A DNA stretch of 64,000 bases from positions 797 through 64,796 of the forward strand of contig DATEPX010000399.1 of assembly GCA_035272945.1 (NCBI GenBank), in the 5' to 3' direction. Positions 976 to 62,773 of the stretch are shown here, piece after piece. The translations under genes and the position numbers were made by a program. The stretch is from Terriglobales bacterium. GTDB taxonomy: Bacteria > Acidobacteriota > Terriglobia > Terriglobales > Acidobacteriaceae. Below the pieces are notes generated by a model. That model was given only the letters and a program-made list of their open reading frames with translations. It was not told the origin of the DNA and did not search any database. The stretch's first letter is position 1; the number at the start of each line of letters is the position of its first letter.

Positions 976-1024
976 CAGTCAAGGCAGCTTCTCCGAGAAT
1001 GAGACAATACTGCTTACCGACTAG

Positions 1025-3439: not shown

Positions 3440-3623
3440 GGAATCTTGGGGTGAAGGTTCCCACGATGTCACTGCGCAGAGGCTCAGCGAGAATGCTCTC
3501 CGCGATGCCATGCTGTTCAAGAAGGCGATAATCCAAGACGCCGGCGAGAGCATCGCGGTTTATGAGCGCGAGCTTCGTTACAAAGTCTTCAATCCCTACA
3601 TGGAGCGTTTGACGGGCACCTGA
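3440..3623 (+). pseudogene. Stub of a PAS-domain sensor protein
   Basis: The frame ending at TGA 3621-3623 reads RLSENALRDAMLFKKAIIQDAGESIAVYERELRYKVFNPYMERLTGT*. This is the canonical start of a PAS fold (..I.v.d.dlRy...N..me.ltG). The rest of the PAS domain and any kinase domain are absent. Confidence 0.4.
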
Positions 3624-3647
3624 CGACTGGCAGCAGGCCGGTATCCG

Positions 3648-4295: not shown

Positions 4296-4605
4296 ATCTC
4301 ACCTCGTGTGGGAAAGCGTCACCAACTTACTTGCTGCCCCACCTCTGCGGACTCTTCTAAAAAACCGATCAGCGTTCCTGGATTATTCCGATCAGGATTC
4401 CTGCCCCGTTGCGGATCAGCAGTCCTGCACAAAAGGGATCACCATTGCCGGACTCGTCGGTCAGTGATCGGCGAACCCGGGACCATGGATCAGGGATAGG
4501 AGTATCCGCGGCTAAAGAGAAAACCCTCAGCTCGCCCGCAGAACACAACTTGGGTTCTAAGACCAGGGAATCCCCAGCAATCGTGACCTTCATAAGTAAG
4601 TCCGG

Positions 4606-7600
4606 TCAGAAACGTAATCTCGCGGATAGCTGCATTTCCCGTGGTACATGAGCATCGTTTGCACGCCCAAAGAATGCCGAGGTGAGCGTGCCGACATAAT
4701 TCGTGTAGTTAACATGGTTCATCACATTGAACGCGTCGGCTCGAAGCTCAATGTACCGTGACCCCTTGCTCCTTTCTCGTAATCTGAACATCTTTGCAAG
4801 GCGCAGGTCCGCGTTGGCGAAGCCGGGTCCGGCGCCACTATTGCGCCCAACATTTCCTGGCCCAGGGAGAATCAACCAGCGAACACTCGTCGCATTGATA
4901 GGAACGAAGCTGCCCCCGAACAACGCGTGTGCGCCGTCGTACAGCACGCCATTAGTCCCGCCGATGAAACGTCCGTCGACCGCAAAAGAGTTGAAGGGCG
5001 CCTTGGGATTTCCCAGGCTTGGGCGGTCGTTGAATACTGTATCGCGGTCATCGTCAAAGCCGGTCGTAATGTTGAAAGGAATGCCTGAGTAGAGGGAAAC
5101 AACACAACCTAAGTTGAAATCCCAGGGCAGCTTGAAGAGACCGGTAAAATTGAGCCGATGTCGCTGGTCGAAATCCGACCGCCCGCGCTCGCCTCTCAAG
5201 TCGTAATTGTTTGCCGGAAGAAAAGACAGCCCCGAGGTGTCATCGATCGAGTGGGAGAAGGTGTACTGCGACAGGAGCTGTAATCTGCCGCCCAGCGTGG
5301 TTCGCAGACCCAGAGTGAGACTGTGCGAATGAGAACTGCCTGAAGTCTCGAACTGATCAACATTCAGGAAATTCGGATCAGGACGCACACCAGTCGTCGG
5401 CAACGGCGCATTGACGTCGGGCATGCGGTACAGCTTCAGTCCGCGCAGCATGATGTACTCCGCCGTGAGGGTAGTCTTTCGGCCCAGTTTTCGCTCCACG
5501 TCCAAGCTGGCTTGGATGGCATAGGGAGTACGGAGGCGAGGATCAATCTGCAGCACACTGGGAGGTGAAGTGGAAACAAGACTAGAGGGGCTCCCCACTA
5601 GAGGGAAGCTTGGATTGCTAACGACAATCTGGTGCAAGTGGGAGCCGTTGAGAAGCAGGAACTGCTCTTCTAGAGTGACTGGCTGCCGTTGGTAGAAAGT
5701 GCCGATACCCGCGCGCAGGATGGTCTGACCATCCGGTGAGGTGGAGAGCGCGATGCGCGGTGCCAGATTTTTGTGGTCGTTGAGATTCGACTGGAGTTCG
5801 TGACGAAGCCCAACCAGCAAGCTCAGCTGCGGCCGAAGGCGGATTTCATCCTGAAAGAAATATGCGACTTCATATTGGGAGAATGCCACGCGCGGATCGC
5901 CCACGTTAACCGTATACTGAAGCGGTTTTTTGTTCACGAAGCTCGCCAGGTCAGAAAACGTGAATGTCCCACCGAAATTGGAAGAATCCGAATAGTCAAT
6001 TAGTCTTGATTTCAGAACTGCTCCGAACCGCAACGAATGCTTGCCATGCAAATAAGATGTAAGATCCTGGAACTCCACATCCTTCTCTAAGTTGCTCCGC
6101 GAGATCTGAGCGCCGCCGCTGCTGAATGAGCCGTTCACCAGGATCGCCGGCCTGCTGTTTGAGCTGCTAGCCAGTTTTGGCCGGTACTTGAAGTCGAAGC
6201 GGAACTCATTCAGGAAAGCCGAGGTAGGGGTCGCGATCTCCGATATTCGAAGTTCGTGGGCCTGATTATTCGAATTCCAGGCGCGCTCGGAGAGATCGAA
6301 TGCTCCGACCCCTTGGTTGGGCAGTCGAGTCTCGCTCCAGTTGTATCGCAGCGAGAGGATATGGAGTGGTGTAAGCCGAATTTCGGTTCGGCCCATCGAA
6401 TGAGCGGCGCGCCCCGGAATGGGAAAGGCTTCCGATAGCGGGCCGCTTGGTGTTACCGCTGCTACGAAGCTGTTGTTATTGTCTCTGAGGTAATCGCCGC
6501 CAACGAAAAAGGTCGCCTTGTCGGCGAAGAGCGGCCCATTGAGCTCGCCCGCGATCCACTCGCGCCGCCTGGGCGGGCGAACCGCGTCGTAGGGGTTGTG
6601 AGCATCCAGTCCAGCATCCCGGAAAGCGAATTCGAAACGCCGATGGAAGCGACGAAGGGAGCCACCTTTGGTCGTAACTTCGATGCGGCCCTTTCCTGGC
6701 CTGCCAAATTCGGCGGAATAGGGATTGCTGTTTACGGCGACAGTCTTGATACTCGAGCTCGGAACATCGAGCGTAGCGTCCTCTACCCCGTCAACTACGA
6801 TCTTAGTTCCCTCCGCATCATTGGCAGCGCTGTTCACAAAGAGGGAGGCAACCGCCAAGGGATTCTCGTTTTTCGCTGGCAGGCTCCGCAAGAAGTCTCC
6901 GTCCAGATAAACCGCACTCGCATTCTCTTCAGGAGATATGGGATCGTCGGACCGAGCCGACACAGTAATCTCCTCACTCACCTTAGCTGGCTGGAGGCGC
7001 ACTCGCTGGGCAGGCGTGGGTTGTGCACCAACCTCAAGGGGTAATTCCAGCGCCTTAAAGCCTTGTGTTTCTGCTCGCAAATGATATTTACCGGGTGCGA
7101 CTTCCCTAAATACGAAGTGGCCTGCCTCGTCCGTGACTGTGTTCAGTGCTCTGCCGGTCGCCTGCCCGACCAGTGTTACGTCCGCCTCCGGAATCACCGC
7201 GCCGCTCCGGTCTTCGACGAGTCCAGTAACAGTGGAAGTGGGCGGCGCCGGTGCCGTCCGAACAGACTCCCCGTCGCGGGGCTGCGCGGAGACACTCGGC
7301 GAGACAAGAACTTCGGTCGCCGTGTGGCTTGTCTCGTTGCGCTGATCAGCCGCCTGGAGAAGGCCGGAATTGTTTGCGGGAATAGCCCGCGGAGGGAGAA
7401 TCGAGTCATTGTTGCCGCCAGTGGCGCCGTCAACGACTCTAGTACCGGACGCAGCGGCCGGCCTGGGCGCGGTCGGAGCAGTCTGTTCCTCTGCGGATGG
7501 TGACATAGCTCTCGGCAACACAGAAACTTCGGTTGCCGGGTGGGCGGCCTCGCGACGTGGATCGGCAAGCTGGATCGAGCTGGTGTCGTTTGCCGCAACA

Positions 7601-8001
7601 GAGTACAGCCGAAGAATCCAGTTGTTGTCGCTGCCTGGAACGATCTCGTACGCAAGCGGACGCGCCAAGTCCACAACCACCCGTGTAGTAGGCGGAACTT
7701 GTCCGTTCATGCCCACACGCACCTCGTTCGCGCCGCCACTCTCCACGGTAAGGCGACGCTGGGGTGTTACCGCCACTGTCTTGGGTAGATCCATTATCAC
7801 TCGAGCAGGCGAATCCAGTCTGCTCAGGTGGGGTGTAACCGGGCCACTGAGCTGCAACTCAATCCTGAGCACTCCGGATTCTTGTCGAACCAGTACTCGG
7901 CGTAGTTCCACGGGTACCTTTATCGGCTGCTGAGCCGTGAGGACTCGTAGGAGCAAAGAAACGCAAGCAACGAGGAATAGCATTCGAATTGCTTTTTTCA
8001 T
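4606..8001 (-). CDS. TonB-dependent receptor-like outer-membrane protein with an N-terminal AMIN domain and a carboxypeptidase-regulatory-like domain
   Basis: The signal peptide is MKKAIRMLFLVACVSLLLRVLTAQ. An AMIN-like segment follows (PARVIMDLPKT...TTRVVVDLARPLAYEIV), then a Pro/Ala/Thr-rich linker. The CarboxypepD_reg domain reads VTGLVEDRSGAVIPEADVTLV...GHFVFREVAPGKYHLRAETQGF. A long beta-barrel ends in ...REMQLSARLRF with a terminal aromatic residue. GGAG lies upstream of the ATG. Confidence 0.85.
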   Translation of the reverse strand: MKKAIRMLFLVACVSLLLRVLTAQQPIKVPVELRRVLVRQESGVLRIELQLSGPVTPHLSRLDSPARVIMDLPKTVAVTPQRRLTVESGGANEVRVGMNGQVPPTTRVVVDLARPLAYEIVPGSDNNWILRLYSVAANDTSSIQLADPRREAAHPATEVSVLPRAMSPSAEEQTAPTAPRPAAASGTRVVDGATGGNNDSILPPRAIPANNSGLLQAADQRNETSHTATEVLVSPSVSAQPRDGESVRTAPAPPTSTVTGLVEDRSGAVIPEADVTLVGQATGRALNTVTDEAGHFVFREVAPGKYHLRAETQGFKALELPLEVGAQPTPAQRVRLQPAKVSEEITVSARSDDPISPEENASAVYLDGDFLRSLPAKNENPLAVASLFVNSAANDAEGTKIVVDGVEDATLDVPSSSIKTVAVNSNPYSAEFGRPGKGRIEVTTKGGSLRRFHRRFEFAFRDAGLDAHNPYDAVRPPRRREWIAGELNGPLFADKATFFVGGDYLRDNNNSFVAAVTPSGPLSEAFPIPGRAAHSMGRTEIRLTPLHILSLRYNWSETRLPNQGVGAFDLSERAWNSNNQAHELRISEIATPTSAFLNEFRFDFKYRPKLASSSNSRPAILVNGSFSSGGAQISRSNLEKDVEFQDLTSYLHGKHSLRFGAVLKSRLIDYSDSSNFGGTFTFSDLASFVNKKPLQYTVNVGDPRVAFSQYEVAYFFQDEIRLRPQLSLLVGLRHELQSNLNDHKNLAPRIALSTSPDGQTILRAGIGTFYQRQPVTLEEQFLLLNGSHLHQIVVSNPSFPLVGSPSSLVSTSPPSVLQIDPRLRTPYAIQASLDVERKLGRKTTLTAEYIMLRGLKLYRMPDVNAPLPTTGVRPDPNFLNVDQFETSGSSHSHSLTLGLRTTLGGRLQLLSQYTFSHSIDDTSGLSFLPANNYDLRGERGRSDFDQRHRLNFTGLFKLPWDFNLGCVVSLYSGIPFNITTGFDDDRDTVFNDRPSLGNPKAPFNSFAVDGRFIGGTNGVLYDGAHALFGGSFVPINATSVRWLILPGPGNVGRNSGAGPGFANADLRLAKMFRLRERSKGSRYIELRADAFNVMNHVNYTNYVGTLTSAFFGRANDAHVPREMQLSARLRF

Positions 8002-39457: not shown

Positions 39458-40042
39458 CTATGAGCGCGCGAATGCCAGCAGCGGACCGATGTCATGATCG
39501 TCGGCGGCCTGCAGGGCGGCGATATAACGCTGGCGCGCCGCGCCGGCACCCTGCAGATTCGCGCTTCCCCACGAAAACCGCTCACCCCCGAGCCTCATCA
39601 CCAGAAGATCCGCCATGAGGCGGGCGTGGCGGCCGTTGCCATTCGGGAAGGGATGAATCTGCACCAGCCGGTGATGGAAGCGCACCGCGATCTCGTCGGG
39701 CGGATATGTCTTGTAATCGATCCACGCCTTGGTGTCGTCAAGCAATTGGCGCAAGGCCACGGGAATCTCGTAAAACGCAGTCCCGAGATTGCGTTCGCTC
39801 GTCCTGAACTTGCCCGCCCGCCTCCATACGTCGCCGAGCATCCGCCGGTGCAGCTCGTGGACGAACTTCTCGCTCAGCGGATCACGGCGGCGGTTGAGCG
39901 CCCAATCCTGCGCGCGCGCGATGTTCTCCTGCTCCGCTTCGTTCAGCTCGCGGCGATAGGCGATATGCGCGGGGATCAGCTCGCGCACTTCCTCCGGCGT
40001 CAGCGGTGTGGCGTCGTCCGGCTGCTCGAAAAGGTCGCTCAC
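39458..40042 (-). CDS. Fic/DOC family protein, 'mobile mystery protein B' type (TIGR02613-like)
   Basis: The Fic motif HPFPNGNGRHAR lies at nt 39620-39655 (HxFx[D/E]GNGRxxR). The 194-aa size and the pairing with an upstream XRE protein are typical of this family. Confidence 0.9.
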   Translation of the reverse strand: MSDLFEQPDDATPLTPEEVRELIPAHIAYRRELNEAEQENIARAQDWALNRRRDPLSEKFVHELHRRMLGDVWRRAGKFRTSERNLGTAFYEIPVALRQLLDDTKAWIDYKTYPPDEIAVRFHHRLVQIHPFPNGNGRHARLMADLLVMRLGGERFSWGSANLQGAGAARQRYIAALQAADDHDIGPLLAFARS

Positions 40043-40047
40043 GCCCG

Positions 40048-40503
40048 CTAATCCCAGAACAGCCGCGGATTCGTCTCGCGCACAATTTCATCGAGGCGCG
40101 CTTCGGCGTCCTTGGCCGTCACCTTCTGGTCCTCCAGCAACATCGAGTGCTCGACCGGACCCAGCCGCCGCCGACCGAACGCGCGCGCTCGGTCGCGGAG
40201 CGTCGTTTCCAGCGGTTTGTTTGGCACGAGCGCATAGACCAGAGTGCAGTCGAGCGCCTCGGCCACGCGCCGCAATGTGGCCAGCTCGATGGTTCCCTTT
40301 GCTTCGGACTGTTCGAGCGCCACCAGGGAAGGTTGCTTGATCCCCAGCCGCTTCGCGAGCTGCGCCGTTGACATGCCGAGCGCCTCCCGAAGAGCCTTGA
40401 TCCAGCCGCGGACGGGCGGGGTATAGCGCTTTGCCGGCCCCAGTTCCCTGAAGCGTTCATCGAGTTGCGAGCGGGACTGGGCTGCAAGTCTAGCCTTCTT
40501 CAT
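40048..40503 (-). CDS. XRE-family HTH protein, 'mobile mystery protein A' type (TIGR02612-like)
   Basis: The HTH reads IKALREALGMSTAQLAKRLGIKQPSLVALEQSE...TLRRVAEALDC. Its stop lies 5 nt upstream of the Fic gene. Confidence 0.9.
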   Translation of the reverse strand: MKKARLAAQSRSQLDERFRELGPAKRYTPPVRGWIKALREALGMSTAQLAKRLGIKQPSLVALEQSEAKGTIELATLRRVAEALDCTLVYALVPNKPLETTLRDRARAFGRRRLGPVEHSMLLEDQKVTAKDAEARLDEIVRETNPRLFWD

Positions 40504-44499: not shown

Positions 44500-46047
44500 C
44501 TACTCGGAAGCTGCCTCGCGGCTGTCGTCTTCGATCAGCTTGAACCGGTTACGTTGCGCTTGTTCCCTCCCCGCGTCTTCCCGGAGTTCTGCTAGCCGCT
44601 TCAGCAGCGGAGGAATCTCACTTGTGTTGCCGGTCCTCCGCAATGCCTGGATCAGGTGATACACTGCGGCCTGATTTTTCGGATCATCCCTCAATGCCTT
44701 TCTGCACTGCTCCATTGCTTCCTTATATTGGCCGGACAGCAGATAGAGTTTTGCCAGGACGCCGCGCGCTTCGGAAAGACTTGGTTGCAGGGCGACTGCC
44801 TTCCTAGCTGAACGTATGGCTAATTCGAAGTCGGGGGAACCCGGGCTTGCGCCGTTCTGCAGTCGAAGATCGGCTTCAAGATACAGGAGCACAGGATCCT
44901 CAGGGTTCCGCTTCAACTTGTCGTTGACCGTGGTCAAGGCGCGGCCGAAATCATTTTCTTGCACAGCCGCCACGGCCAAGGCGGCTGAACTGAGCGACTC
45001 ACGCGGATCAATTTCGTGCGCCTTGTCGAGGTCGGCCTCAGCGTTGTCATACTGGCCCAGCTGAACATAGAGGACTCCTCGCGCCAAGTATAGTGGTGCC
45101 GCATTCGGCTGTAAGCCAATGCCGTCGCTGAGTGCATTCACACCCACCTGAAATGAGCTGTGTTCATAACAAAGGTGCGCGAAATCCAGATAGAGGTTCA
45201 CATCATTGGGATCCGCCACAATCGCCTTTTGCAGTGTGCTGACTGCCTGCTCGGTATTGCCGGCGTCCTCATACGCGGACGCGGCAAGATCTAAGGTTGC
45301 GGTGTCACCCGCATCGAGCAACGGCCTGAGGGTGCGCAGCGCCTCTTGCGGTTGATGCGCCATGAGTTGGACGGATGCCAATAAACGGCGCTCCTCGCTA
45401 TCGTCCGGCCGAAGCGCAAGAGCTTGCTGAAAAACTGCTGCCGCAGAATCGAGTTGTTTGAGCCGCATCAGGCAAATGCCGCGGGCATGCAGCGCCGGCA
45501 AACGCGAATCGAGCAAGCTGCCGGCTCTCTCAAAGTGGGCGACCGCTGCAGCACAGTCTCCGCGCCTGTACTCGAGAACAGCCAACATCGCATGAGCTAT
45601 GCGATCCTCGGGCCGTAAACGGAGCACGTGCTGGATGAGCGGGATCGCCCTAGAGCTGCCGCTGTCGTACTCAATTTGAGCAGCTCCCTTCAGTGCGGGA
45701 AGATAATCAGGAGAGATTTTCAGTGCCTTGTTATAGGACAGCAATGCTTCCTTCTGCTTCATTTGGCCCAGGTAGGTGCCGCCCTGCATCGTCCATAATT
45801 CCGGGTCGGCCGGCCGCTGCTGCAGTGCGGCTCTGAGCAACTGCAGGGCTTGACCGAATTGGCGATTCTGCAGCGCCGCCGCGATTGCTTGCTTCTGCCC
45901 TTCGCCGGTTTGGCCGAAACCAGAGGCCAAGAGGACAAGAACAAGTCCCGCGGCACCGATGCGCTTCTGTGCGTGAACCAGGATCGCGAATCCAAGCATG
46001 GGTTTTAAATCCAGCCTTGATAGCTTGATTGCAGACGCGGAAATCAT
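44500..46047 (-). CDS. Secreted TPR-repeat protein (paralog of 51552-53048)
   Basis: TPR units run throughout the protein. By eye it is ~50% identical to the TPR protein at 51552-53048 (ALKISPDYLPALKGAAQ.../ALKISPDYIAALAGAGQ...). Confidence 0.85.
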   Translation of the reverse strand: MISASAIKLSRLDLKPMLGFAILVHAQKRIGAAGLVLVLLASGFGQTGEGQKQAIAAALQNRQFGQALQLLRAALQQRPADPELWTMQGGTYLGQMKQKEALLSYNKALKISPDYLPALKGAAQIEYDSGSSRAIPLIQHVLRLRPEDRIAHAMLAVLEYRRGDCAAAVAHFERAGSLLDSRLPALHARGICLMRLKQLDSAAAVFQQALALRPDDSEERRLLASVQLMAHQPQEALRTLRPLLDAGDTATLDLAASAYEDAGNTEQAVSTLQKAIVADPNDVNLYLDFAHLCYEHSSFQVGVNALSDGIGLQPNAAPLYLARGVLYVQLGQYDNAEADLDKAHEIDPRESLSSAALAVAAVQENDFGRALTTVNDKLKRNPEDPVLLYLEADLRLQNGASPGSPDFELAIRSARKAVALQPSLSEARGVLAKLYLLSGQYKEAMEQCRKALRDDPKNQAAVYHLIQALRRTGNTSEIPPLLKRLAELREDAGREQAQRNRFKLIEDDSREAASE

Positions 46048-51551: not shown

Positions 51552-53048
51552 TTATTGCCGGGCCGGTTCCCCGGCCTGGCTTTCACCTCCGGCAAGCTTG
51601 TACCGGTAGCGTTCTCTATCCTCTTTGGCCGCCTGCTCGCGGAGGTCTGCTAGCCGCTTCAGCAGTGCCGGAATTTCTTCTTTTTTCCCCGTCTTGCGCA
51701 GTGCCTGGATCAGGCGATACACGCTGGTCTGATCTTTGGGATCGATCTCCAGCGCTTTCCTGGACTCCACGATCGCATCTTGGAGCTTTCCAGCCTGCAT
51801 ATACAGCTTGGCGAGGACCGCCCGGGCCGGAGCGAGGGATGGCTGCAAGGACACCGACTTCGTGGCCGAATGCAGGGCCGCTTGAAATTCCGGAGTTCCC
51901 GGGTCCACACCTTTTTGCGTGAGAAAGTCAGCCTGTAAATAAAGGAGGTACGCATCATTCGGCTTTTTTGCCAGCTTCGTCTGAATCTCGGCCAGGGCGC
52001 GCCCGATATCATTCTGCTGTAACGCGGCCAAGCCCTGAGCGGCTGCACTTAGAGACTGGTTGGGATCTAGTTCGTGAGCGCGCTCAAAATCGGCTTCCGC
52101 GCTTTGGTAATCAGCTAGTTGGACGTAGAGAACGCCGCGTGCCAGATAAAGTTCCGCCGCATTCGGTTGGACGCGCATGCCATCGCTTACGACGTCAATG
52201 CCAACCTTGAAGGACTGGTGCGCCAGACACATGCTGGCAAAATCCAGATAAAGATTTACGTCCTGGGGATCGAGCAGGATGGCCTGTCGCAACGAGCTGA
52301 CCGCGCGCGGAGTCTCCCCGGCATCCTCGTAGGCTGTGGAAGCCAGTTCCAATGTGCTCGCGTCTGGACTGTCAGCGTGCAGCACTGGCTCTAACGTCGC
52401 GATGGCATCCTGAGGCTTTTTCGCCATCACCTGGACGGACGCCAGAATTTGACGTTCGTGTCGGTCATCCGGCTTTAACGTGACGGTGTGCTGGAAAACT
52501 TTTATCGCGTCATCCAACCTGCGCAGCCTAACCAGGCAGATTCCGTAAGCGTGTTGCGCATCACGCTGCGATTCCAGCAAAGCTCCACCTTTTTCGAAGT
52601 GCCCGACCGCCGCAGCGCACTTCCCCTCGCGATAGCTAAGAACCGCAAGCATAGCGTGGGCGGTTGGATCGTCGGGCCGCAACTGTACCAGGCGATTCAA
52701 CAGCGGCACCCCTTTCCGATCACCCGCTTGATAGTAGAGCTGGCCGGCGCCGGCCAGAGCCGCAATGTAGTCGGGAGAAATCTTCAGCGCTTGTTGGAAT
52801 GATTGGAGGGCGCGTTTGCGATCACCCTTGGAGGCGAACGCGATTCCCTGCAGGGACCAGAGTTGCGCATTCTTTGGTGTCCGCGTCAAAGCCGCCCGGC
52901 TAAGCTCGATTGCCCGGTCGAAATCGTGCGCTCTCAGTGCCGAGGTGATAGGCTCGACGTCGACTCTTTGAGCTTGGGCACAGGCGGACCCGAGGCAAGC
53001 CAAAATCAAAGCCGAGACACCAAGTCTATGGGAAAACACCGTTATCAC
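51552..53048 (-). CDS. Secreted TPR-repeat protein (possible lipoprotein)
   Basis: The N-terminus is MITVFSHRLGVSALILACLGSACAQ. TPR units run throughout the protein. It is the first gene of the minus-strand TPR-ASPIC-TBDR-TPR-GH127 array. Confidence 0.85.
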   Translation of the reverse strand: MITVFSHRLGVSALILACLGSACAQAQRVDVEPITSALRAHDFDRAIELSRAALTRTPKNAQLWSLQGIAFASKGDRKRALQSFQQALKISPDYIAALAGAGQLYYQAGDRKGVPLLNRLVQLRPDDPTAHAMLAVLSYREGKCAAAVGHFEKGGALLESQRDAQHAYGICLVRLRRLDDAIKVFQHTVTLKPDDRHERQILASVQVMAKKPQDAIATLEPVLHADSPDASTLELASTAYEDAGETPRAVSSLRQAILLDPQDVNLYLDFASMCLAHQSFKVGIDVVSDGMRVQPNAAELYLARGVLYVQLADYQSAEADFERAHELDPNQSLSAAAQGLAALQQNDIGRALAEIQTKLAKKPNDAYLLYLQADFLTQKGVDPGTPEFQAALHSATKSVSLQPSLAPARAVLAKLYMQAGKLQDAIVESRKALEIDPKDQTSVYRLIQALRKTGKKEEIPALLKRLADLREQAAKEDRERYRYKLAGGESQAGEPARQ

Positions 53049-53387
53049 CGCTGCTTGTCATGTGCGTAGCAAGAATATCCCATCCGGAAAGGTAACCGGC
53101 AAATTTGAGCCCTATTCTTACAAAATCGGCAGGGGGACGATCACGCTCCTCCCTTTAACACCACCAGGACAGGCGGGTGCGCATCTGGCGATTCAGTGAG
53201 TTAAACGGCAGGGGCTGTATCTTCAACTGGTCGTTCGCCGCAGGAAGTTCCACTCCTCTACAGGTCTCGGTTTTAAGCGTTGGAAGCAAGATTCGGTTCT
53301 TTCCGCGACTCGGTGGACTCGACCATCGCTGCGCGGCTTAACTCGCACAACTCTGCCAGTCCGGATCAAGCCTCGATCTACGCCCAA

Positions 53388-53672
53388 TCAGAAGCCTGCC
53401 GACAAGGCGTTCCATGGCCACGCGTCGACTTCGAACGCGTTGCCTGGCCGGGCCGCGGTTTTTCCATTCCAGGTTAAGTCTCTGGAAATGGAAAAGATAA
53501 TGCGATCCACACTTTCTACGTTCACGAAATACACCATGGGCCGAGTCCTTCTTCGCACTTCCACGAAGCAGCGCTCGATCACGTTAGCGGTGCGTAGTTT
53601 GCGCCACAGATGTCGGGGAAAGGCGAAGGCGGCACGTGACGAGAATGTCTTGTCCCATGGCCGTATCAGTTC
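53388..53672 (-). mobile_element. C-terminal remnant of an IS256 (Mutator) family transposase
   Basis: Directly after the helicase stop the frame reads ELIRPWDKTFSSRAAFAFPRHLWRKLRTANVIERCFVEVRRRTRPMVYFVNVESVDRIIFSI. It matches the IS256 C-terminal signature (FP.eHW..lRTtN.iEr.f.EirRRt.....f.n.es..Rl). The catalytic DDE region is absent. Confidence 0.65.
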
Positions 53673-56600
53673 TCACCGACCACCGGAAGACCATTCCTCA
53701 CGGAGTTCATGGGCACGGCGTATAACGCGTTCGGTCAATTCACCGAGCTTTGGAGACTCATCGGCCCGGTCCGAGGCAGGCCCCTTGGCCGGAATGTCCA
53801 AGGATTGCAGCTTGTCGAAGATCGCCTTCATGGCACGGTCCGGTCCGCGGAAGAAGGTACTGCCCCGCACTCGTGCGAAGGTCCATCCGAGTCGCTCGAG
53901 CATCGACTGTCGCTCCATGTCATCGCGGAGCTCTTCGAGCGGGAGATCCCGATCCCCATCGCACTCGATGGCCAAACGCTTGCCGTCACCTTCCACGACC
54001 AGACCGACGCTCCGCGATCCGACCTTCCACCGCGGAATGACGTGGTAGCCGGCCCGGACCAGGTGCTTCATGACATCGCGTTCCAGTGCGGACTGGAGGT
54101 TTTTTTCTTTATCGTCGAGGGGCCGAGTGAGGAGTTCGGGTGCCTGCGCGTGCTCAATGAGCCGCCGGCGCAGGTCGGCGGGTTGAAGGTCCGTTTGCGG
54201 GTCCAAGGAGTGGACGACCCACATCTGGTCTCGCGCCCGGCTGGCCGCCACGTTGTACCGCTGCTTGAACATCTGCTGGTCACGAAAGCGGAGCGCTCCG
54301 CCTGACGGGGCATCCACAACGGAGACGAAAACCACGTCTCGCTCGTCTCCTTGAAATTGCGCGGACGTTCCACACAGCAAACGATGCCGTTCGTACCCGT
54401 TAGGAGCAAGATGCGTTCTCAGGAGACGGTCGATTTCCAGAGCTTGCTCCTCACCCACAAGGGATACGACACCAAAACTGTATGGCCGCCCGAATTCGTT
54501 GGTCTGGTATTCGGTTTGTTCAAGTGCCGCTGCTATCAGAGAAGCAATGACATCAGCTTCCTGGTGGTTGACCTTTCCGTCCCGTGTCGAGCCTGGGACG
54601 TGATAAGCAAGGACGTGCGGTTTCAACCGAACGCGGCTCGCATCTCGCAGTGGTTTAATGTCACCGTCGTAAGAAAGCTGGTTGCTGAACTGAATTATTT
54701 CGGTGACGCAGCGGAAGTGCTCAACCAACCGGACCGTTTCGCCGAAGGATTGGCGGGCCAAATCGTAGACTGAGGTTTGGCCATCGTACAGATGAGCGTT
54801 GGGAATTCCCCGCAGGAACTGATCGATCAAATTTTGAATGACGGCGGCCTCTTGTCCGACCGCGGACGGGCTGACCTGTTCGTGGTCGCCGACCACAACC
54901 ACGCTGTGACCCAGGTAAAGCGCAACCAGGGCCATTACGTCGCTCTGGCTGGCTTCATCGATAATGACTACATCAAAACGCGACTTTCCGGGATCAAAGT
55001 TCTCGACCACCCGGGAGAGGGGCATGACCCAGACCGGGACGGCACCCCAGCACTCGGTCATTTTATGGGCCGCCTCCGCACGCAAGCTCGGGGCACGTAT
55101 ACCGGTGCCCTTGCCGATCTTCCTTATGGTGTCGAGCCAGCCGATGAGCGATTGCCTTTGGGGAAGGGAGGTCCTCCGTGCCTGATACATCCAGGCCCGA
55201 TTATCAATAAGGTCAATCGTCGTGGCCCGCAGCTCTGCGGCCACTCGTTCAATGGATGTCTGAAGCTCATCGATGGACACACTGGCCCTGCGGTCCAGTT
55301 CGTCCTGAATTTGGCGCCACGTCCAGGCTTGCGCAGGGTCTCCGGGCACGCTAGCGCTTGCGTGCGGGCCGCTGCGCGCTCGAATTGCCCCAGCCCAAGC
55401 GGGCGCGGCGGCCTCAAGCTTTGCCAACAGAATATTACGGCGTTGCAGGCTGCATCGGAGCTCGTGCAGTTCCACGAGCCGTGTGTAGCCTCGGCGGTAG
55501 GCTCTGGAATCCAATGAGTCTACTGCCTCGCGGAGACTTGCGATGGCACGGGAATCGGTGAACGACCGCATCGCGACAGCCAGACGCTCACGTAACTCAG
55601 CAAGCTTCCGGTTAATCTCGCTCCACTTCAGGTGGTCGCAGCGCGCCGCAAGTATAGGCGGGAAGGAGTCCTGTACGGCCCTTCGCAATCTTACTAACTC
55701 ACCATCATCGCCAACGACCGCTGGCTGCTCCGACAGAAACTTGTCCCAAAGAAATCCTGTCTCCCTCAGTTCGTTCTCAAGCGGGCCCCAGATCTGTGAA
55801 TGCCACGCCAGACCATCTCGAATCGGAGCGCAAAACTGAATTGCGCCCTTTTCGATCTCAGTCCCCATTTCAGCTGACCTGTTTGCGCCCAATGGCGCCA
55901 TTTGACGGTCCCAGCGGGTGGCGAGGTTTTTGCGAAGAAGTTTGAGCCGTGCAAACTTACTGACTGCCAAAAAATGATTAGGGAGTTTAGGCTGGCCGCC
56001 GTCAACCCGGGTCGTCTGAATGAACCGCTTCCAGCGCTTGTGAGTCAGGAGGCTAAAGAAGCCCAAGCCGCCTCCGCTTCGCAAATGGCCATGGATCTCC
56101 GTCGCCGTCTGCTCATGCTGTTCAAGGAGTGACTCTTCTGCGAGCGTGGGTGCATGCTGTATGAGGAGCTCTTGAGCACCCGCCGCCTCGACATGGACTT
56201 GCTCGACGAGTGCGAGCAGTTTCTCCCAAGTCTCTTTATGGGAGCCGCCATTCTTTCCCGCGTAGATGGCCGCCAGTTTCCATCTCTCGCTGCTGGCAAG
56301 GACACCGACCGATTGCCTGAGTTTGCTTGCGGTCTTGTTCAGGGAATCCGCAGAAGTGGGCCTATTGACGCTTTGCCAAAGATCGGAACGGAACTCGCGG
56401 TCCGCTTGTTCCAGGCGTGCCCGTTCAAGAATCAGGTCCTGGAAATCTGCCGGGGCCGGGAGTTCGTCGGGGCCCAGCAGATGGCCCGATAATTCGCTCT
56501 CGACGTCCGGTGATATGGACCGATTGGTGGCATAGAGTTCCGCAAGTTCGCCTCCGGAAAACGGCAAGTCGATACCGGCCTGAACCGGGCCCGGAATCCA

Positions 56601-58280
56601 GCCATTCACTTCTGATTCTCGTGCGATCTTTCTAGCAGCCTCCGAGGGTGACCATGCCTTTACCGCAACAACCACATCTCGGTACTCGTCGGCACGTGCG
56701 TCCGCGAGTTGTTGGCGCAACTTCGCCAGGCGCCCAACCAGTTCTGCTCGTTCCTGGGTGAGTCTGTCAGCCTCAAGTTCCAGCGATGTCGAGTCCGTTC
56801 TGGACAGCCGGTCAGCAATGGTACTGACCGCACTCTCCAGCTGCATATGACTGTCGAGATCGTTCTCCAGCAGACTTACACCGAGAGAGCGCAACTCGGG
56901 CACAATCTGGCTGCGTACCATTCGTAGCGCCTTCGTGGTGTGACTGGTGACCAGCACGCTCTTTCCTTCAGCGAGCAAGTGACCGATGAGATTTCCGATG
57001 GTGTACGTCTTTCCCGTGCCGGGAGGTCCCTGGACCAGGACGCCGCCCGAATGCTCGATCCGGCGCGCGATCCGGATCTGTTCGGGATTGGCGGGCTTGG
57101 TGAGGAGGATGTCCGCGTCCTCCGGGGCCCGAGTGCCGAAGCCGTCAGGACCTTCGATGTCTGGAGGAGGGGGTTCGAGGCCCACGATATTCAGAAGCGA
57201 CCAGGGTAAGTCGTTCCGGTGGCGGAGATCCTCCAATACAGCCTCGATCGCGGCTGCAAAACCAAGAGTCCGAGGGCGAAGAAACAGCACGGGTTGCCTT
57301 CCAACCCGGGGATCGTCTGTTTCCCCTTCTGGAGCACTCGACTCGACAAATTCACCACGAGGAGAGAGTTGAACGACGAGGCGCTCCAGAAAGTCCGACG
57401 TGGGACCATCATCGAGCGGGGAGTACCCTTCCTGCTCCAATTCGTCGCGGCAGCGTCCGATGGCCCGTCCATCGACGTCCGGCATCGACTGGAACAGGGC
57501 GGAATAGAGCTCCACCGGGTGTTCTGTTTCCGTCAGCGTGAATTCGGGGACCGAAGGGCTGAAGCTGAGCTGCAGCCGCTGCAGCAAGACGGGATGGTAT
57601 ACAGTTCCTTCCGGCCGGCGCCAGCTGAGTATCCCGTCGCCCAAGACGATTTCCACGCGTTCGGCTTCGCGCTCCACACGGCCATGTAACTCGTAAAAAT
57701 CCTCAAATATCTTCATCGCGGCCCGGGCGGGCCGCTCGTCAATCGCCCACTGGTTTCGCTGGGCCTTCCATTGGTCGAGTGCCGCCACACGTTTGGGATC
57801 GGCCCCGAACCTCACACGCATCGCGCCACCTGTGGAGGACTCGTTCCTGGACTCGAGCGTCGACGCGTCCTTGAACGGATTCTCCCAACCGCCTTCAAGC
57901 CATGGCTCGATCAGTGCCGGAGGAGTTGGTGGATTGGTAAGTTTCGGGCGGGCAATCTTGAGTATGAAATCCGAATCCTGTCCCTCGGCCGACAACCCAT
58001 CGTTGCTTGCTACCAGGGCCGGCAAATCAGCAGCCGGACCAGTTCCCCTCCTGATCGAGGGATGGTCCGGTAAATCCTTCATCCATAGTGTCCACAACTG
58101 TTCCCCGATCCGCCGCTTGACGGGATTCCGGTGTTCATTAAGTGCTTCCAAGTAACGGAAGACCCTTAGAAGCCGGTCACGCCCAATACGGATTGTTTCA
58201 CTGTCCATGAGCGCTCCACCTGCACGTGAGCTACTCCCTCCACTCCATTCCAGAATCATGACAGAGTTTAAAGATAGCAT
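53673..58280 (-). CDS. 1,535-aa Upf1/Dna2-like SF1 helicase with a long insertion and a C-terminal Vsr/DUF559-like PD-(D/E)xK endonuclease domain
   Basis: Walker A is GPPGTGKT (aa 418-425, nt 57006-57029). Walker B is DEASQ (aa 1108-1112, nt 54945-54959). Other helicase motifs are VVVVGDHEQVSPS, LVEHFRC and NVAASRARDQMWVVHS. The C-terminal nuclease-like block is LERDVMKHLVRAGYHVIPRWKVGSRSVGLVVEGDGKRLAIECDGDRD...RQSMLERLGWTFARV (nt ~53850-54089). The start could instead be ATG 58208 (MDSETIRIG). Confidence 0.85.
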   Translation of the reverse strand: MLSLNSVMILEWSGGSSSRAGGALMDSETIRIGRDRLLRVFRYLEALNEHRNPVKRRIGEQLWTLWMKDLPDHPSIRRGTGPAADLPALVASNDGLSAEGQDSDFILKIARPKLTNPPTPPALIEPWLEGGWENPFKDASTLESRNESSTGGAMRVRFGADPKRVAALDQWKAQRNQWAIDERPARAAMKIFEDFYELHGRVEREAERVEIVLGDGILSWRRPEGTVYHPVLLQRLQLSFSPSVPEFTLTETEHPVELYSALFQSMPDVDGRAIGRCRDELEQEGYSPLDDGPTSDFLERLVVQLSPRGEFVESSAPEGETDDPRVGRQPVLFLRPRTLGFAAAIEAVLEDLRHRNDLPWSLLNIVGLEPPPPDIEGPDGFGTRAPEDADILLTKPANPEQIRIARRIEHSGGVLVQGPPGTGKTYTIGNLIGHLLAEGKSVLVTSHTTKALRMVRSQIVPELRSLGVSLLENDLDSHMQLESAVSTIADRLSRTDSTSLELEADRLTQERAELVGRLAKLRQQLADARADEYRDVVVAVKAWSPSEAARKIARESEVNGWIPGPVQAGIDLPFSGGELAELYATNRSISPDVESELSGHLLGPDELPAPADFQDLILERARLEQADREFRSDLWQSVNRPTSADSLNKTASKLRQSVGVLASSERWKLAAIYAGKNGGSHKETWEKLLALVEQVHVEAAGAQELLIQHAPTLAEESLLEQHEQTATEIHGHLRSGGGLGFFSLLTHKRWKRFIQTTRVDGGQPKLPNHFLAVSKFARLKLLRKNLATRWDRQMAPLGANRSAEMGTEIEKGAIQFCAPIRDGLAWHSQIWGPLENELRETGFLWDKFLSEQPAVVGDDGELVRLRRAVQDSFPPILAARCDHLKWSEINRKLAELRERLAVAMRSFTDSRAIASLREAVDSLDSRAYRRGYTRLVELHELRCSLQRRNILLAKLEAAAPAWAGAIRARSGPHASASVPGDPAQAWTWRQIQDELDRRASVSIDELQTSIERVAAELRATTIDLIDNRAWMYQARRTSLPQRQSLIGWLDTIRKIGKGTGIRAPSLRAEAAHKMTECWGAVPVWVMPLSRVVENFDPGKSRFDVVIIDEASQSDVMALVALYLGHSVVVVGDHEQVSPSAVGQEAAVIQNLIDQFLRGIPNAHLYDGQTSVYDLARQSFGETVRLVEHFRCVTEIIQFSNQLSYDGDIKPLRDASRVRLKPHVLAYHVPGSTRDGKVNHQEADVIASLIAAALEQTEYQTNEFGRPYSFGVVSLVGEEQALEIDRLLRTHLAPNGYERHRLLCGTSAQFQGDERDVVFVSVVDAPSGGALRFRDQQMFKQRYNVAASRARDQMWVVHSLDPQTDLQPADLRRRLIEHAQAPELLTRPLDDKEKNLQSALERDVMKHLVRAGYHVIPRWKVGSRSVGLVVEGDGKRLAIECDGDRDLPLEELRDDMERQSMLERLGWTFARVRGSTFFRGPDRAMKAIFDKLQSLDIPAKGPASDRADESPKLGELTERVIRRAHELREEWSSGGR

Positions 58281-58694: not shown

Positions 58695-60449
58695 TTAAGT
58701 GTCCAGCTTCATGCGCCGCAACAATTTGGCGAAACGCTTGTCGGCCCGCAGTGGATCGTAGAAGGGATCGCTGGCAATCAACAGTGAGTATACATTCCGC
58801 TCTTCGCAGGCCCGCGTGAGCCACTTCAATGCTTCTTCGGGATGACCTGCCCGCAAATGCTCGCGCGCGAATTTTATTGCAGGTACGTAAGCGCCACTAT
58901 CCCGGCTAGACTGCAACCGTTCGAGTCTCTTCGCAGCTACAGCACGCACAACCTTGTCAAAGGCCCCGCTAGTGTTGGCCGCGCGGAGAGGGGCGACAAG
59001 CTCCGCATCATTGGCCAAGAGTGCGGCTTTTGTCCACTGTTCGACCGCTTCCTGGTATTGGCCCTTCCGCTCGTAGATATCGCCGAGTGCTTCACGGACT
59101 GAGGCGTCGTTGTGATCGAGTTCGATTGCTTTCTGGTATTGTTGGATTGCTTCATCGTAGCTGCGCGCGCAGTACAAGGCATAACCCAAGTGCTGGCTAA
59201 TACGAAGCGAAAACGGGTTGCATGCCAACGCCCGCTTGCCTTCTGCGATGGCTTCGCGGAAACGGCGCATCACCAGCAAGAAAAAGGAATACGCGTAATG
59301 TATTTCGTCGAATCCAGGGCTTAATTCGATGGCGCGCTTCGCTTCTCTCTCTGTGCCTACCCAGTCTAAGTAGTAAACCATCTTGAGTGCAGCTAGATCG
59401 AGATGTGCTTCGGCGAGCTGGTCATCGAGTTCGAGCGCCTTCGTAACTGCCCACTCTGCCTTCGGCCAGCCTTCGTCTGGCGGCATGATGCCCCACGCCG
59501 CCCCGTAGCCATAAAAGCTGTTCAGTCCACAGTAGGCGAGCGCGTAAGAAGGGTCTTCTTCAACTGCGCGATGAAAATAGTCACGGCTCTTGTTGAATTC
59601 TTCGGGCGAGTTCTTCCACCAGTAATATCTCCCCTTCAGGTAAAGCTGGTACGCTCTTGTGCTTTGTGTATAGTGCTTGACGAGACGTGACTGATCTTCT
59701 TTGCTGAGTTCGAGTGACAACGCTTGCGCCACCCGCTCGGAGATTGCATCTTGCAGAGCAAAGATGTCAGTCATTTCGTCATCGAAGGTTCCCGCCCACA
59801 ACGAAGCGCCATTTGACACATTCAGCAAACGCACAGTGACCCTGACTCTCTTGCCTTGGCGCTGAAGGCTTCCTTCCAGCACAGACTCCACTCCCAGTTC
59901 CCGCCCCGCTGCAAGTACGTCCTGCTTCAAATCAGCATATTTGCGAATCGAGCTTATGGGACGCACGACGACGTCCCGGATGCTGCTGAGTCTGGCGATC
60001 AGCGTGTCCGCCATGCCCATTTCCAAAGCTTCGTCCCGGTTATTTGGTGCCAGCGGCTGGAAAGGAAACACGGCAATGCTTGGGATGGACTCAGCACTGC
60101 TTGCGATTACAGGCGGCTTGCGCTTGGTCACGGGTGCAACGAACCTGTAGCCCCGTCCTGGAACCGTAACAATGTAACGGTGCTCGGCTCGTTTCTCGCC
60201 GAGCGCGCGGCGCAGCGCGGAGATGCATTGATTCAAGTTGTTCTCTTCGACAGCGGTTTCGCCCCAGATTGCCCGCATAAGCGTTTCTTTGCCGAGAACT
60301 ACGTCGCTATGTTGGACCAGATAAATCAGCGTGTCGAATGCCTTCGGGGTCAGGGGCAATGGACGACCATCTCCCTCAAGTAACAAACGTCTCCCGGGGT
60401 CAACGCGGAAATCATCGAATTCGTAGATATACTTCTGAGGCCGTTCCAT
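58695..60449 (-). CDS. CadC/OmpR-type winged-helix DNA-binding protein fused to TolB-like and TPR domains
   Basis: The N-terminus YEFDDFRVDPGRRLLLEGDGRPLPLTPKAFDTLIYLVQHSDVVLGKETLMRAIWGETAVEENNLNQCISALRRAL...VTVPGRGYRF is a trans_reg_C domain. The C-terminal half consists of TPR units. Confidence 0.85.
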   Translation of the reverse strand: MERPQKYIYEFDDFRVDPGRRLLLEGDGRPLPLTPKAFDTLIYLVQHSDVVLGKETLMRAIWGETAVEENNLNQCISALRRALGEKRAEHRYIVTVPGRGYRFVAPVTKRKPPVIASSAESIPSIAVFPFQPLAPNNRDEALEMGMADTLIARLSSIRDVVVRPISSIRKYADLKQDVLAAGRELGVESVLEGSLQRQGKRVRVTVRLLNVSNGASLWAGTFDDEMTDIFALQDAISERVAQALSLELSKEDQSRLVKHYTQSTRAYQLYLKGRYYWWKNSPEEFNKSRDYFHRAVEEDPSYALAYCGLNSFYGYGAAWGIMPPDEGWPKAEWAVTKALELDDQLAEAHLDLAALKMVYYLDWVGTEREAKRAIELSPGFDEIHYAYSFFLLVMRRFREAIAEGKRALACNPFSLRISQHLGYALYCARSYDEAIQQYQKAIELDHNDASVREALGDIYERKGQYQEAVEQWTKAALLANDAELVAPLRAANTSGAFDKVVRAVAAKRLERLQSSRDSGAYVPAIKFAREHLRAGHPEEALKWLTRACEERNVYSLLIASDPFYDPLRADKRFAKLLRRMKLDT

Positions 60450-61743: not shown

Positions 61744-62040
61744 ATGATTGTGGGGCGAACAACGATCATCGAGGCTGATCCCGAGCCCGTCACGGTTAAC
61801 TGCGCGGAGACGGCCGTGGTCGTTGTGGACATGCAGAACGACTTTTGTTCGAAGGGTGGACTGTTTGACCGTGCAGGAATAAACATTTCCGCGGTCCAAA
61901 AAGCCGTCGGGCCGACGCGGAAAGTGCTTTCCGCTGCACGCGACGCCGGGATCACAATTGTTTACCTGAAGATGGGCTTCCGGGCTGACCTGTCAGACCT
62001 TGGAGACACCGATTCCGCTAACCGCGTACGTCATCTCCAA
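61744..62040 (+). pseudogene. N-terminal ~100 codons of an isochorismatase-family (RutB-like cysteine hydrolase) gene
   Basis: VVVVDMQNDFCSKGGLFDRAGINISAVQKAVGPTRKVLSAARDAGITIVYLKMGFRADLSDLG is a typical isochorismatase N-terminal half. After ~aa 100 the ORF becomes unrelated sequence that is antisense to the next stub. The catalytic Cys region is absent. Confidence 0.6.
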
Positions 62041-62049
62041 TTCGGTGTC

Positions 62050-62214
62050 GGCCAGCCGTGCATCCTCGTGAGCTTCCAGTACCGTGACCCGTACGTCCTG
62101 TCGGACAAGCAAGAGCGCGAGCACCATTCCTGCGGGACCGCCACCGACGATGCAACAGTCTTGTTGGAAACGTGGTTCGCCGGTGTCTGGGGAAGCCGTT
62201 TGGTCGTCAGGCAT
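62050..62214 (-). pseudogene. N-terminal ~55 codons of an FAD-dependent monooxygenase/oxidoreductase
   Basis: From ATG 62214 the frame reads MPDDQTASPDTGEPRFQQDCCIVGGGPAGMVLALLLVRQDVRVTVLEAHED. This is a GxGxxG FAD-binding beta-alpha-beta unit with nothing of the rest of the enzyme. Confidence 0.5.
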
Positions 62215-62773
62215 AAGCACCTCCAGTTCGCGGCAACAAATCGAGATGGTCTGGCAATAATAGGCTTTTCTCAATCTCTTTGTCGCGTGCCGAACCCGGA
62301 GGTCCCCGGAGGTCGGCAACCCAAGCCGTTCCTTGTGGAGATAATGCCGAACGTCGCTTCACGTGCTCGGTAATAGCAGCTGCTGCACCCTATGCGCCTC
62401 TGTACTTGCTATGGCAGTGATGCAGAGTTCGAAGAGGCGCAGGAGCATACGAACAGCAGTAGTTTGGCGCTGTACGCATAAACTCATAACATCACCGCGG
62501 GAGATTTCTGGCTGGCCAAGCTGAGATCTCCCGTTCTCATTAGGCCGCTAATTTCCGAGTGGCCCGTTATCCAGCTGTAATCGGCGACAGGTGCCAACCG
62601 AGCTTCCGATTCTCCCCCATTTTGACTTCGAGCCTGGGTTGGCGGATAGCGGCGATCAGGACGGGAACCGAGAACGCATCTTTGCCGTCCCATTCTCGCG
62701 CTGCGAGTTCTGCTAATCTCAACGTTTACTGAAACTGCTGTTCACTCCAAGATAGAGAGCATTTGTCCCATCT

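Follow-up and report, generated by a model that had tools for sequence, protein, structure and literature searches.

In the current study a 64,000-nucleotide stretch of the Terriglobales bacterium contig DATEPX010000399.1 (hereafter the window) was analysed, in which a very large gene on the minus strand encodes a protein that joins an Upf1-like superfamily 1 (SF1) helicase to a Vsr-like nuclease fold. We consider this protein to be best explained as a stand-alone helicase-nuclease of the Hhe-like class, belonging to a distinct and unnamed family, with a role in the surveillance of foreign nucleic acid and with a genomic placement associated with an insertion sequence (IS) of the IS256 family. 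The probability of this reading is put at roughly one half, a figure that covers the inferred defence role, the roles of the N-terminus and of the helical arm and the loss of cleavage; the domain plan, the size of the family, its separateness from the named families, the lack of a partner gene, the labile context, the active-site substitutions and the purifying selection are directly observed. The wider distribution of the family, with members on plasmids, adjacent to BREX, Wadjet and restriction-modification (R-M) systems and in IS-rich surroundings, together with a labile genomic position, points to conflict with mobile DNA.

Domain organisation of the helicase-nuclease

The longest open reading frame (ORF) spans window positions 53673 to 58280 on the minus strand (4,608 nucleotides (nt), 1,535 amino acids (aa), ATG start). 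This ORF had been proposed in a first-pass annotation made from the letters of the window, and it proved to be real once the strand had been corrected to minus and the start to M25. The true start is probably M25 (window 58208), giving a coding sequence (CDS) of 1,511 aa at 53673-58208, because a GGTGGAG Shine-Dalgarno sequence lies 5 nt upstream and every homologue begins there: P0001 from the database and each of the 120 listed relatives start at the residue that corresponds to M25 here, MDSETIRIGRDR. The 24-codon extension upstream of it is probably not translated. The reading frame of 4.5 kb is intact and identical in at least seven independent metagenome contigs, and the window locus matches several independent ENA metagenome contigs at 99.8% identity.

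The protein belongs to the Upf1-like SF1B helicase superfamily, as motifs I, Ia, II, III, V and VI are present and both Pfam AAA_11 (aa 399-496; E 2.7e-15; 57.3 bits, cutoff 27) and Pfam AAA_12 (aa 1181-1356; E 1.9e-12; 47.6 bits, cutoff 27) score above their cutoffs. The Walker A motif GPPGTGKT (aa 418-425) and motif II, IIDEASQ (aa 1106-1112, with the DEAS box at aa 1108-1111), were found where the first-pass annotation had placed them, with a distance of 683 aa between Walker A and Walker B, and the RecA2 motifs that it had reported are likewise present; motif Ia is intact, as are motifs III (VVGDHEQ, aa 1129-1135), V (QFQGDERD, aa 1308-1315) and VI (NVAASRAR, aa 1343-1350). The closest solved helicases in a sequence search of the PDB (E 1e-12 to 1e-5) are Sen1-like, Dna2, Upf1 and IGHMBP2, and the core was therefore classed as Upf1-like SF1B.

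Two large regions precede and interrupt this core. The N-terminal part, said earlier to hold no recognisable motif, contains no Pfam family that reaches its cutoff within aa 1-395, the only match being Ago_N_2 at aa 193-231 (E 0.022; 15.5 bits, cutoff 27). AlphaFold2 models, built from alignments of 50 sequences each, predict a mixed alpha/beta domain for aa 25-395 (predicted local distance difference test (pLDDT) 75) and an elongated, almost purely helical structure for the insertion at aa 462-1075 (pLDDT 86), the latter in line with the helical character that had been expected of it. The insertion lies in RecA1, presumably at the position of the 1C and stalk elements of Upf1. In a Foldseek comparison of the N-terminal domain with the PDB nothing significant was obtained (best E 0.14 at a template modelling (TM) score of ~0.1), and its profile had no match among PDB sequences. 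A single match to viral structures, a 440-aa 'AAA domain protein' of a metagenomic myovirus (E 2e-4, TM 0.26), is probably a truncated homologue, that is, a fragment of the same kind of helicase. The resemblance of the insertion to Rad50, MukB and SMC arms is merely that of generic coiled coils (TM ~0.1 against the PDB) and was discarded as evidence of homology.

Family size and distribution

An exhaustive HMMER search of 1.84 billion cluster representatives, with aa 25-1095 as query, returned 4,746 proteins at E<=1e-3 and 1,588 at E<=1e-30. The best 150 matches mostly cover nearly the whole query, usually in one stretch, at 33-50% identity, and most of those that are not fragments are 1,400-2,000 aa long. 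Members occur in Acidobacteriota, Firmicutes, Fusobacteria, Proteobacteria and Actinobacteria and include proteins of Heliorestis, Pelosinus and Clostridia; AAA_11, AAA_12 and MTES_1575 occur together in all five distant members that were checked. When plasmids were searched by tblastn, full-length members were found in Acetoanaerobium and in a Fusobacteria bacterium, while shorter matches, in two pieces that cover 50-82% of the query, came from Fusobacterium vincentii, Deinococcus, Ralstonia, Streptomyces, Variovorax, Acinetobacter and others. The public names of these proteins are merely 'AAA domain-containing protein' or 'very-short-patch-repair endonuclease', and the family, spanning at least five phyla, is named as such by none of Pfam, NCBIfam and PADLOC v2. 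Judged from these matches, it is a large, old and unnamed family of fixed architecture. The N-terminal domain and the insertion are its conserved hallmark and not special to this gene, and an insertion of comparable size occurs in ProA and PDC-S37 (see below). The combination of domains has been known since 2013 (MTES_1575, PMC3710099); what is new is that a very large family with an orphan N-terminal fold can be set apart, and that it is found beside defence systems on plasmids.

The window protein falls in a clade of at least 52 protein clusters from Sulfotelmatobacter/gp1-type Acidobacteria. Copies of ~60% identity were also encountered in soil metagenome-assembled genomes (MAGs) binned as Chloroflexota, Patescibacteria, Verrucomicrobiota, Eremiobacterota, Methylomirabilota and Dormiibacterota (the loci binned to other phyla being L022, L026, L034, L038, L056, L068, L083 and L065, the last as Ca. 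Elarobacter). The ORFs around the gene in L065 lie at the same coordinates as those in L047 and L055 (Acidobacteria gp2), which suggests mis-binning of the contig rather than transfer. A phage origin was considered and rejected, as four weak partial phage matches and two IMG/VR contigs were all that was found, the family being essentially absent from phage genomes; on the viral-labelled IMG/VR contig L170 a 50%-identical copy is broken into ORFs of 639 and 1,059 aa.

The nuclease domain and selection on the protein

The C-terminal block had been assigned to DUF559/Vsr-like nucleases. As regards the fold this assignment holds, Pfam MTES_1575 (PF18741) matching aa 1400-1491 over model positions 2-96 of 96 (79.5 bits, cutoff 38.2, E 2e-22), while DUF559 matches below threshold only; as regards the active site it does not, since the block keeps the E-x-D-G element and lacks residues aligning to the catalytic Asp51 and His69 of Vsr. 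A single-sequence search of the nuclease domain against the PDB gave no match. In Vsr, Mg is bound by the side chain of Asp51, the essential His69 makes contact with the scissile phosphate, and Trp68 acts by intercalation into DNA (PMC4081097, PMC2677866); the Asp51 equivalent is essential in both Vsr and AbaSI (PMC4081097). Alignment with E. coli Vsr (sequence from NC_000913) by hhalign, which is weak (E 7e-4, probability 11%), equates D1426 with Asp51, C1440 with Thr63, D1441 with His64, Y/F1445 with Trp68 and H1446 with His69, and the consensus of the wider family reproduces the D51...H69...LGW pattern of Vsr.

Departures from this pattern are concentrated in the window's clade. Among distant family representatives the Asp51 equivalent is present in 106 of 106, the His69 equivalent in 97 and the aromatic residue in 95, and 64 relatives at 61-69% identity carry the block (R/S)I-D-LVVEG...E-C-D-G-D-R-(Y/F)-H. 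In all 52 relatives at 75% identity or more, which make up the clade, the His is replaced by Leu, or rarely by another residue, and the aromatic residue by Asp or Glu, the loss of His being paired with the acidic gain at the adjacent position in 55 of ~56 clade members. The window protein has both H1446L and D1426G; Gly also replaces the first Asp in P0001, P0007 and P0053, and the Asp51 equivalent has been lost in at least three lineages, all within this clade, which suggests that catalysis was already dispensable there. E1439 is invariant and likely corresponds to the position of the Hhe mutation E1731A. For the window copy, cutting by the canonical Vsr mechanism is unlikely, its nuclease being probably inactive or rewired, and the simple picture of a helicase sensor coupled to a nuclease effector probably fails for it.

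Selection was estimated per domain within the clade lacking the His, using the Nei-Gojobori ratio of non-synonymous to synonymous substitution rates (dN/dS). Values were 0.016 for the first part of RecA1, 0.054 for its second part with RecA2, 0.095 for the nuclease domain, 0.13 for the N-terminus, 0.13 for the insertion and 0.26 for the short C-terminal tail, the least conserved part of the protein. From purifying selection in all domains we infer a functional protein that still requires its nuclease fold; a clade in which purifying selection persists although the nuclease site is naturally degenerate is a novel finding.

These values may also be read as those of a working enzyme, in which a remodelled acidic site (E1430, E1439, D1441 and D1443 with the new D/E1445) keeps the nuclease active and the protein acts as a conventional Hhe-like effector. 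The invariance of E1439, the nuclease dN/dS of 0.095 in the His-less clade and the coupling of the H-to-L change to an acidic gain would all accord with this, and Vsr-fold enzymes such as AbaSI provide a precedent with extra acidic residues and different general bases (PMC4081097). We nevertheless think it improbable, as the Asp51 equivalent, a direct Mg ligand and universal among the distant members, is Gly here and has been lost repeatedly in the clade, and as the nuclease dN/dS of the WIN-L007 pair (0.26) exceeds the values for both its helicase core (0.04-0.08) and its N-terminus and insertion (0.15-0.18).

Position of the gene and lability of its surroundings

The first-pass annotation had noted an IS256 transposase scar directly after the stop codon. 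This observation was upheld, the remnant lying immediately downstream in the same frame, and the event that left it also removed the last ~18 codons of the gene. A full IS256 element was ruled out, as only model positions 309-373 of 379 are left and no terminal repeats were found. Homology to relatives by blastn stops at about window 53685, ~10 nt before the stop codon, and all ten nearest relatives carry 17-18 further codons, their tails continuing ...EEWSAPRDKRR...; the variable tail was therefore cut off by an IS-associated deletion, from which the present junction results. Relative to the contig L001, which is otherwise 99.8-100% identical, identity falls to 98.0% in 53000-53499 and 99.4% in 53500-53999, and the IS256 remnant shows small indels. 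The remnant is consistent with a decaying, non-coding scar.

One might suppose from this that the gene itself is a remnant, acquired, clipped by the IS event and on its way to becoming a pseudogene, with two canonical nuclease residues already lost and with homologues elsewhere that are disrupted by IS elements or split (L178, L170). Such an outcome is very improbable in view of the intact frame that recurs in independent metagenome contigs, the integrity of all helicase motifs and the clade dN/dS of 0.02-0.13; moreover, the tail that was lost is the least conserved part of the protein.

The genes around the helicase in the window are ordinary and, as had been stated earlier, otherwise unrelated (TPR, FG-GAP/ASPIC, outer-membrane barrel, winged-helix/TPR regulator and cupredoxin proteins), and relatives at 61-89% identity lie in unrelated neighbourhoods. 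Clustering of 1,093 flanking ORFs from 84 loci revealed no conserved partner gene or operon, the commonest neighbour family occurring in 15 of the 84, which agrees with the proposal of a single gene without a partner. At 85-90% helicase identity 8% of neighbours are shared, and the 13 closest relatives share none of the window's neighbours. The upstream regulator (58695-60449) retains its cupredoxin/isochorismatase flank in 13 of 20 orthologous metagenome contigs (75-95% identity), yet the helicase is downstream of it in none of the 20, and the sequence found there differs in almost every contig; the helicase is accordingly no syntenic core gene, as had been surmised. No 'empty site' in which the regulator adjoins the TPR gene was found in these relatives, whose downstream sequence has no match in the window. 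A defence hotspot at this locus was also considered and dismissed, the variable cargo of the relatives consisting largely of metabolic genes besides one GmrSD-like nuclease and one IS4/5 transposase. The window contains no tRNA, no flanking repeats beyond chance and no Rfam match, its promoters and terminators are at background level, and no integrase was seen among the annotated genes of its 30-64 kb part. The IS256 remnant is the sole trace of a mobile element at the locus.

Functional interpretation

A link to defence emerges from plasmid-borne members of the family. Six plasmid records were inspected, of which three place the gene beside BREX, Wadjet or type I R-M genes and one in a patch rich in IS elements and integrases. 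In Acinetobacter johnsonii it directly follows a BREX-1 operon (PglX, DUF262-HNH, PglZ, BrxL), in Variovorax it stands beside Wadjet-like genes (AAA ATPase, DUF4194), RmuC and IS3, and in the Fusobacteria plasmid it is near type I R-M subunits and an integrase; the Streptomyces patch also holds an AAA-ATPase/DUF4276 pair, and the Tsukamurella and Deinococcus records were uninformative. On the Deinococcus actinosclerus plasmid CP029776.1 (L178) the family gene is split by an IS701 transposase. By BLASTP, the Acinetobacter and Variovorax proteins match the window protein in the N-terminal domain, in Walker A and the beginning of the arm, and throughout the C-terminal half, and they carry the canonical D...H nuclease site; the Fusobacteria protein matches in one piece with 97% tblastn coverage.

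Several observations weigh against extending a defence role to the window copy. The link just described comes only from distant plasmid-borne relatives and not from acidobacterial loci, where ~5 of 130 immediate neighbours are defence-like, no defence-island signal is seen and the -1/+1 positions are occupied by ordinary genes (PilZ in 12 of 130, di-haem oxidoreductase in 9, STAS in 5 and M48 peptidase in 4). At least 138 species-level genomes of one lineage carry the gene, and its identity to the nearest relatives (89%) is about that of the chromosomal regulator (88-89%), a pattern that a long period of vertical inheritance could produce. In P. aeruginosa the core genome includes a large, related helicase with DUF4011 (PMC10250203). 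The metabolic nature of the variable cargo means that context lability may in part be general genome shuffling. As for the loss of cleavage, the alignment to Vsr is statistically weak and rests on motif congruence, and residues E1430, E1439, D1441, D1443 and D1445 could sustain catalysis.

Much of this would suit a lineage-wide helicase-nuclease of genome maintenance or RNA/DNA processing (repair, replication fork or R-loop, in the manner of Dna2 or Sen1), inherited vertically in Acidoferrales/Terriglobia, shuffled by rearrangement and without an immune function, an account that we hold to be less likely but a serious rival. In a scan of species-representative genomes the at least 138 carriers generally have one copy per contig set, and of the best 80 nearly all belong to Acidobacteriota (Acidoferrales, Sulfotelmatobacter, Terriglobales); besides this distribution, the strong purifying selection, the ordinary neighbours, the regulator-like divergence, the identity of the closest solved helicases and the P. 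aeruginosa precedent argue in its favour, and if helicase activity is what matters most, tolerance of lost nuclease residues is less puzzling. It sits poorly, however, with the absence of synteny even at 85-90% identity where the regulator keeps its own flank, with the absence of the gene from the orthologous locus in all 20 related contigs, with the presence of two copies on different contigs of one MAG (SMAG_U12712, Terriglobales; L028 and L049), with the plasmid members beside BREX, Wadjet and R-M genes or interrupted by IS elements, and with the fact that the nearest named relatives are all anti-phage proteins.

If the protein is indeed a surveillance helicase-nuclease, its ATP-driven helicase would load and translocate on invader DNA or on replication or transcription intermediates, its N-terminal domain and helical arm might, as a conjecture, gate or target this activity, and the Vsr-like domain would cut in canonical members. 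In the window's clade the nuclease site has been rewired through the exchange of the His69 equivalent for Leu and of the Trp68 equivalent for Asp/Glu; in the window copy, which has also lost the Mg-binding Asp51 equivalent, action would be mainly through the helicase/ATPase, the retained nuclease fold possibly serving DNA binding or regulation. The present position was reached through a rearrangement involving IS256, with removal of the last ~18 codons. A bolder version, in which purifying selection maintains the acidobacterial clade as a branch of an Hhe-like immune helicase family whose nuclease is naturally dead, is a speculation to which we attach little weight. Were it correct, giant helicases could act without cutting, for example by stripping or stalling replication or transcription complexes on foreign DNA, or alternatively as ATP-consuming sensors, and the orphan N-terminal domain and the 600-aa arm would be the real specificity and effector modules.

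Helicase-nuclease fusions are among the commonest and least understood single-gene defence candidates. The plasmid members adjacent to BREX, Wadjet and R-M systems therefore offer a concrete target for experimental validation, and the acidobacterial clade, which is without the His (and in the window copy also without the Mg-binding Asp) yet remains under selection, represents a natural separation-of-function mutant from which it could be learned whether the nuclease serves as effector at all. Should the protein turn out to have a housekeeping role in Acidobacteria, the case would caution against the annotation of defence by domain architecture alone.

Features of the window and of related loci

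The features of the gene and of its 3' junction are collected in Table 1.

Table 1. Coordinates of the helicase-nuclease gene, its domains and the adjoining IS256 remnant in the window.
Feature	Window position	Strand	Basis or remark
Probable CDS, helicase-nuclease of unnamed Hhe-like family	53673..58208	-	1,511 aa, M25 to stop
24-codon in-frame upstream extension	58209..58280	-	No homologue aligns; 98% query coverage for all matches; weak upstream context
Family-specific N-terminal alpha/beta domain, aa 25-395	57096..58208	-	Conserved in top 150 distant representatives
RecA1 first part: Q-like region, Walker A (aa 418-425), motif Ia	56886..57095	-	Pfam AAA_11/AAA_30/AAA_19
~610-aa all-helical insertion inside RecA1, between motifs Ia and II	55056..56885	-	AlphaFold2 model, family-wide conservation
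RecA1 second part (motif II DEAS, motif III) and RecA2 (motifs IV-VI)	54141..55055	-	Pfam AAA_12 aa 1181-1356, PDB matches
MTES_1575 (Vsr-like PD-(D/E)xK) nuclease fold, aa 1400-1491	53808..54083	-	Non-canonical site G1426, D1445, L1446
Junction: last four codons (SGGR) and stop, non-homologous to relatives	53673..53685	-	blastn against five relatives
IS256-family transposase remnant, C-terminal ~90 codons	53391..53672	-	Pfam Transposase_mut 309-373 of 379, E 4.6e-9, 36.1 bits (cutoff 21)

Elsewhere in the window, an adjacent HTH_3 (151 aa) and Fic/DOC (194 aa) pair resembling a toxin-antitoxin system is situated at 39458-40503 (minus strand), ~13 kb from the helicase and among glycoside-hydrolase genes; the Fic protein recurs on many metagenome contigs (56 index blocks). 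Two similar TPR proteins of 515 and 498 aa (44500-46047 and 51552-53048, minus strand) flank an FG-GAP/ASPIC protein and a CarboxypepD_reg outer-membrane barrel, a repeated module that adjoins GH127, GH116 and GH172 genes and resembles a polysaccharide-utilisation neighbourhood. A 209-aa 'isochorismatase' ORF at 61744-62373 (plus strand) matches its Pfam model at positions 1-72 of 175 only, and the alignment of relatives is limited to the first ~107 residues; the ORF is probably frameshifted or truncated.

At related acidobacterial loci, PilZ and di-haem oxidoreductase genes recur beside the helicase in sub-lineages (loci L010-L089), two or three loci have another Upf1-like AAA_11/AAA_12 helicase next to it, and RNase_H_2 occurs at 2 of 130 neighbours. 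In L009 (Ga0683538_0000806) a giant Tc/ABC-toxin-like protein of more than 3,500 aa (VRP1, ABC_toxin_N, TcA_TcB_BD; positions 1-7662) is encoded ~2.3 kb upstream of an 84%-identical helicase.

Relation to named defence systems

Homology to the helicase cores of Hhe, ProA, PDC-S37 and Mokosh is detectable, with the scores given in Table 2; distant family members reach 189-215 bits with ProA and 190-224 bits with PDC-S37.

Table 2. Matches of the window protein to models of named defence proteins.
Model	Score	Cutoff	Aligned region
NCBIfam ProA (NF058533)	156.1 bits	1,500	aa 410-1507 to profile 663-1719, one stretch
NCBIfam Hhe (NF042953)	129.3 bits	2,000	aa 1082-1513, best of two stretches
PADLOC PDC-S37 (PDLC05009)	155 bits	no curated cutoff	aa 1082-1503, profile 918-1350 of 1550, best of two stretches
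PADLOC MkoC	121 bits	no curated cutoff	aa 1101-1364, best of two stretches
PADLOC MkoA	96 bits	no curated cutoff	aa 1099-1360, best of two stretches
PADLOC Hhe (PDLC02194)	87 bits	no curated cutoff	aa 1082-1495, best of two stretches

Hhe was reportedly first described by Gao et al. in 2020. It is a validated single-gene helicase-Vsr defence against lambda, T3, T7 and PhiV-1 that is abolished by E1731A (bioRxiv 10.1101/2022.06.16.496414), and it appears to respond to phage DNA-metabolism functions (PMC11482910). The architecture attributed to the gene in the first-pass annotation is shared to the extent that an Upf1-like AAA_11/AAA_12 SF1 helicase is followed by a Vsr-type nuclease in one polypeptide, with no partner gene. 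Membership of Hhe was nonetheless rejected, the score being far below the NCBIfam cutoff and the alignment confined to the C-terminal region; DUF4011 (PF13195), the N-terminal domain of Hhe, has no match at E<=1 in the window protein, which possesses an unrelated N-terminus of ~370 aa instead, and none at E<=1e-5 in five distant members. Moreover, Hhe requires its nuclease site for defence, whereas the window copy is without the Asp51 and His69 equivalents. As for Nhi, to which the gene had been called related in concept, no Nhi model is among the PADLOC matches at E<=1, and membership was likewise rejected.

ProA is the best-scoring named model but remains well under its cutoff, and the first ~660 positions of its profile have no counterpart in the window protein; a search of the available literature for ProA ('anti-phage protein ProA') found no publication. 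PDC-S37, itself a computational candidate only, is the top PADLOC match and in some distant members aligns from the Walker A region to the nuclease, but with the window protein its alignment is partial and low-scoring and leaves the N-terminus unaligned, so that membership was rejected on coverage and score (at most 224 bits in relatives). Both profiles align across an insertion of comparable length, PDC-S37 doing so end to end only in some family members, and given these single-stretch alignments from Walker A to the nuclease the long insertion is common to those families, while the N-terminal domain is not. With Mokosh (MkoA+MkoB or MkoC) the likeness is limited to the Upf1-like core (RecA1b/RecA2, 96-121 bits); Mokosh carries a phospholipase D (PLD)-type nuclease and other accessory domains, nothing matches outside the core and no PLD domain was found in the window protein by Pfam, and membership was rejected.

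Among proteins outside the named defence systems, E. coli Vsr and the DUF559 and MTES_1575 nucleases are of the same fold family, the window protein differing from Vsr in Asp51 to Gly, Trp68 to Asp and His69 to Leu, in its fusion to a helicase and in having no evident Zn-site cysteines. Compared with Sen1, Dna2, Upf1 and IGHMBP2 its insertion is ~10 times longer and its N-terminal domain is different, and the nuclease of Dna2 is of another type and in another position. Taken together, the profile scores and alignments place the family beside Hhe, ProA and PDC-S37, as their sister and not as a member of any of them.

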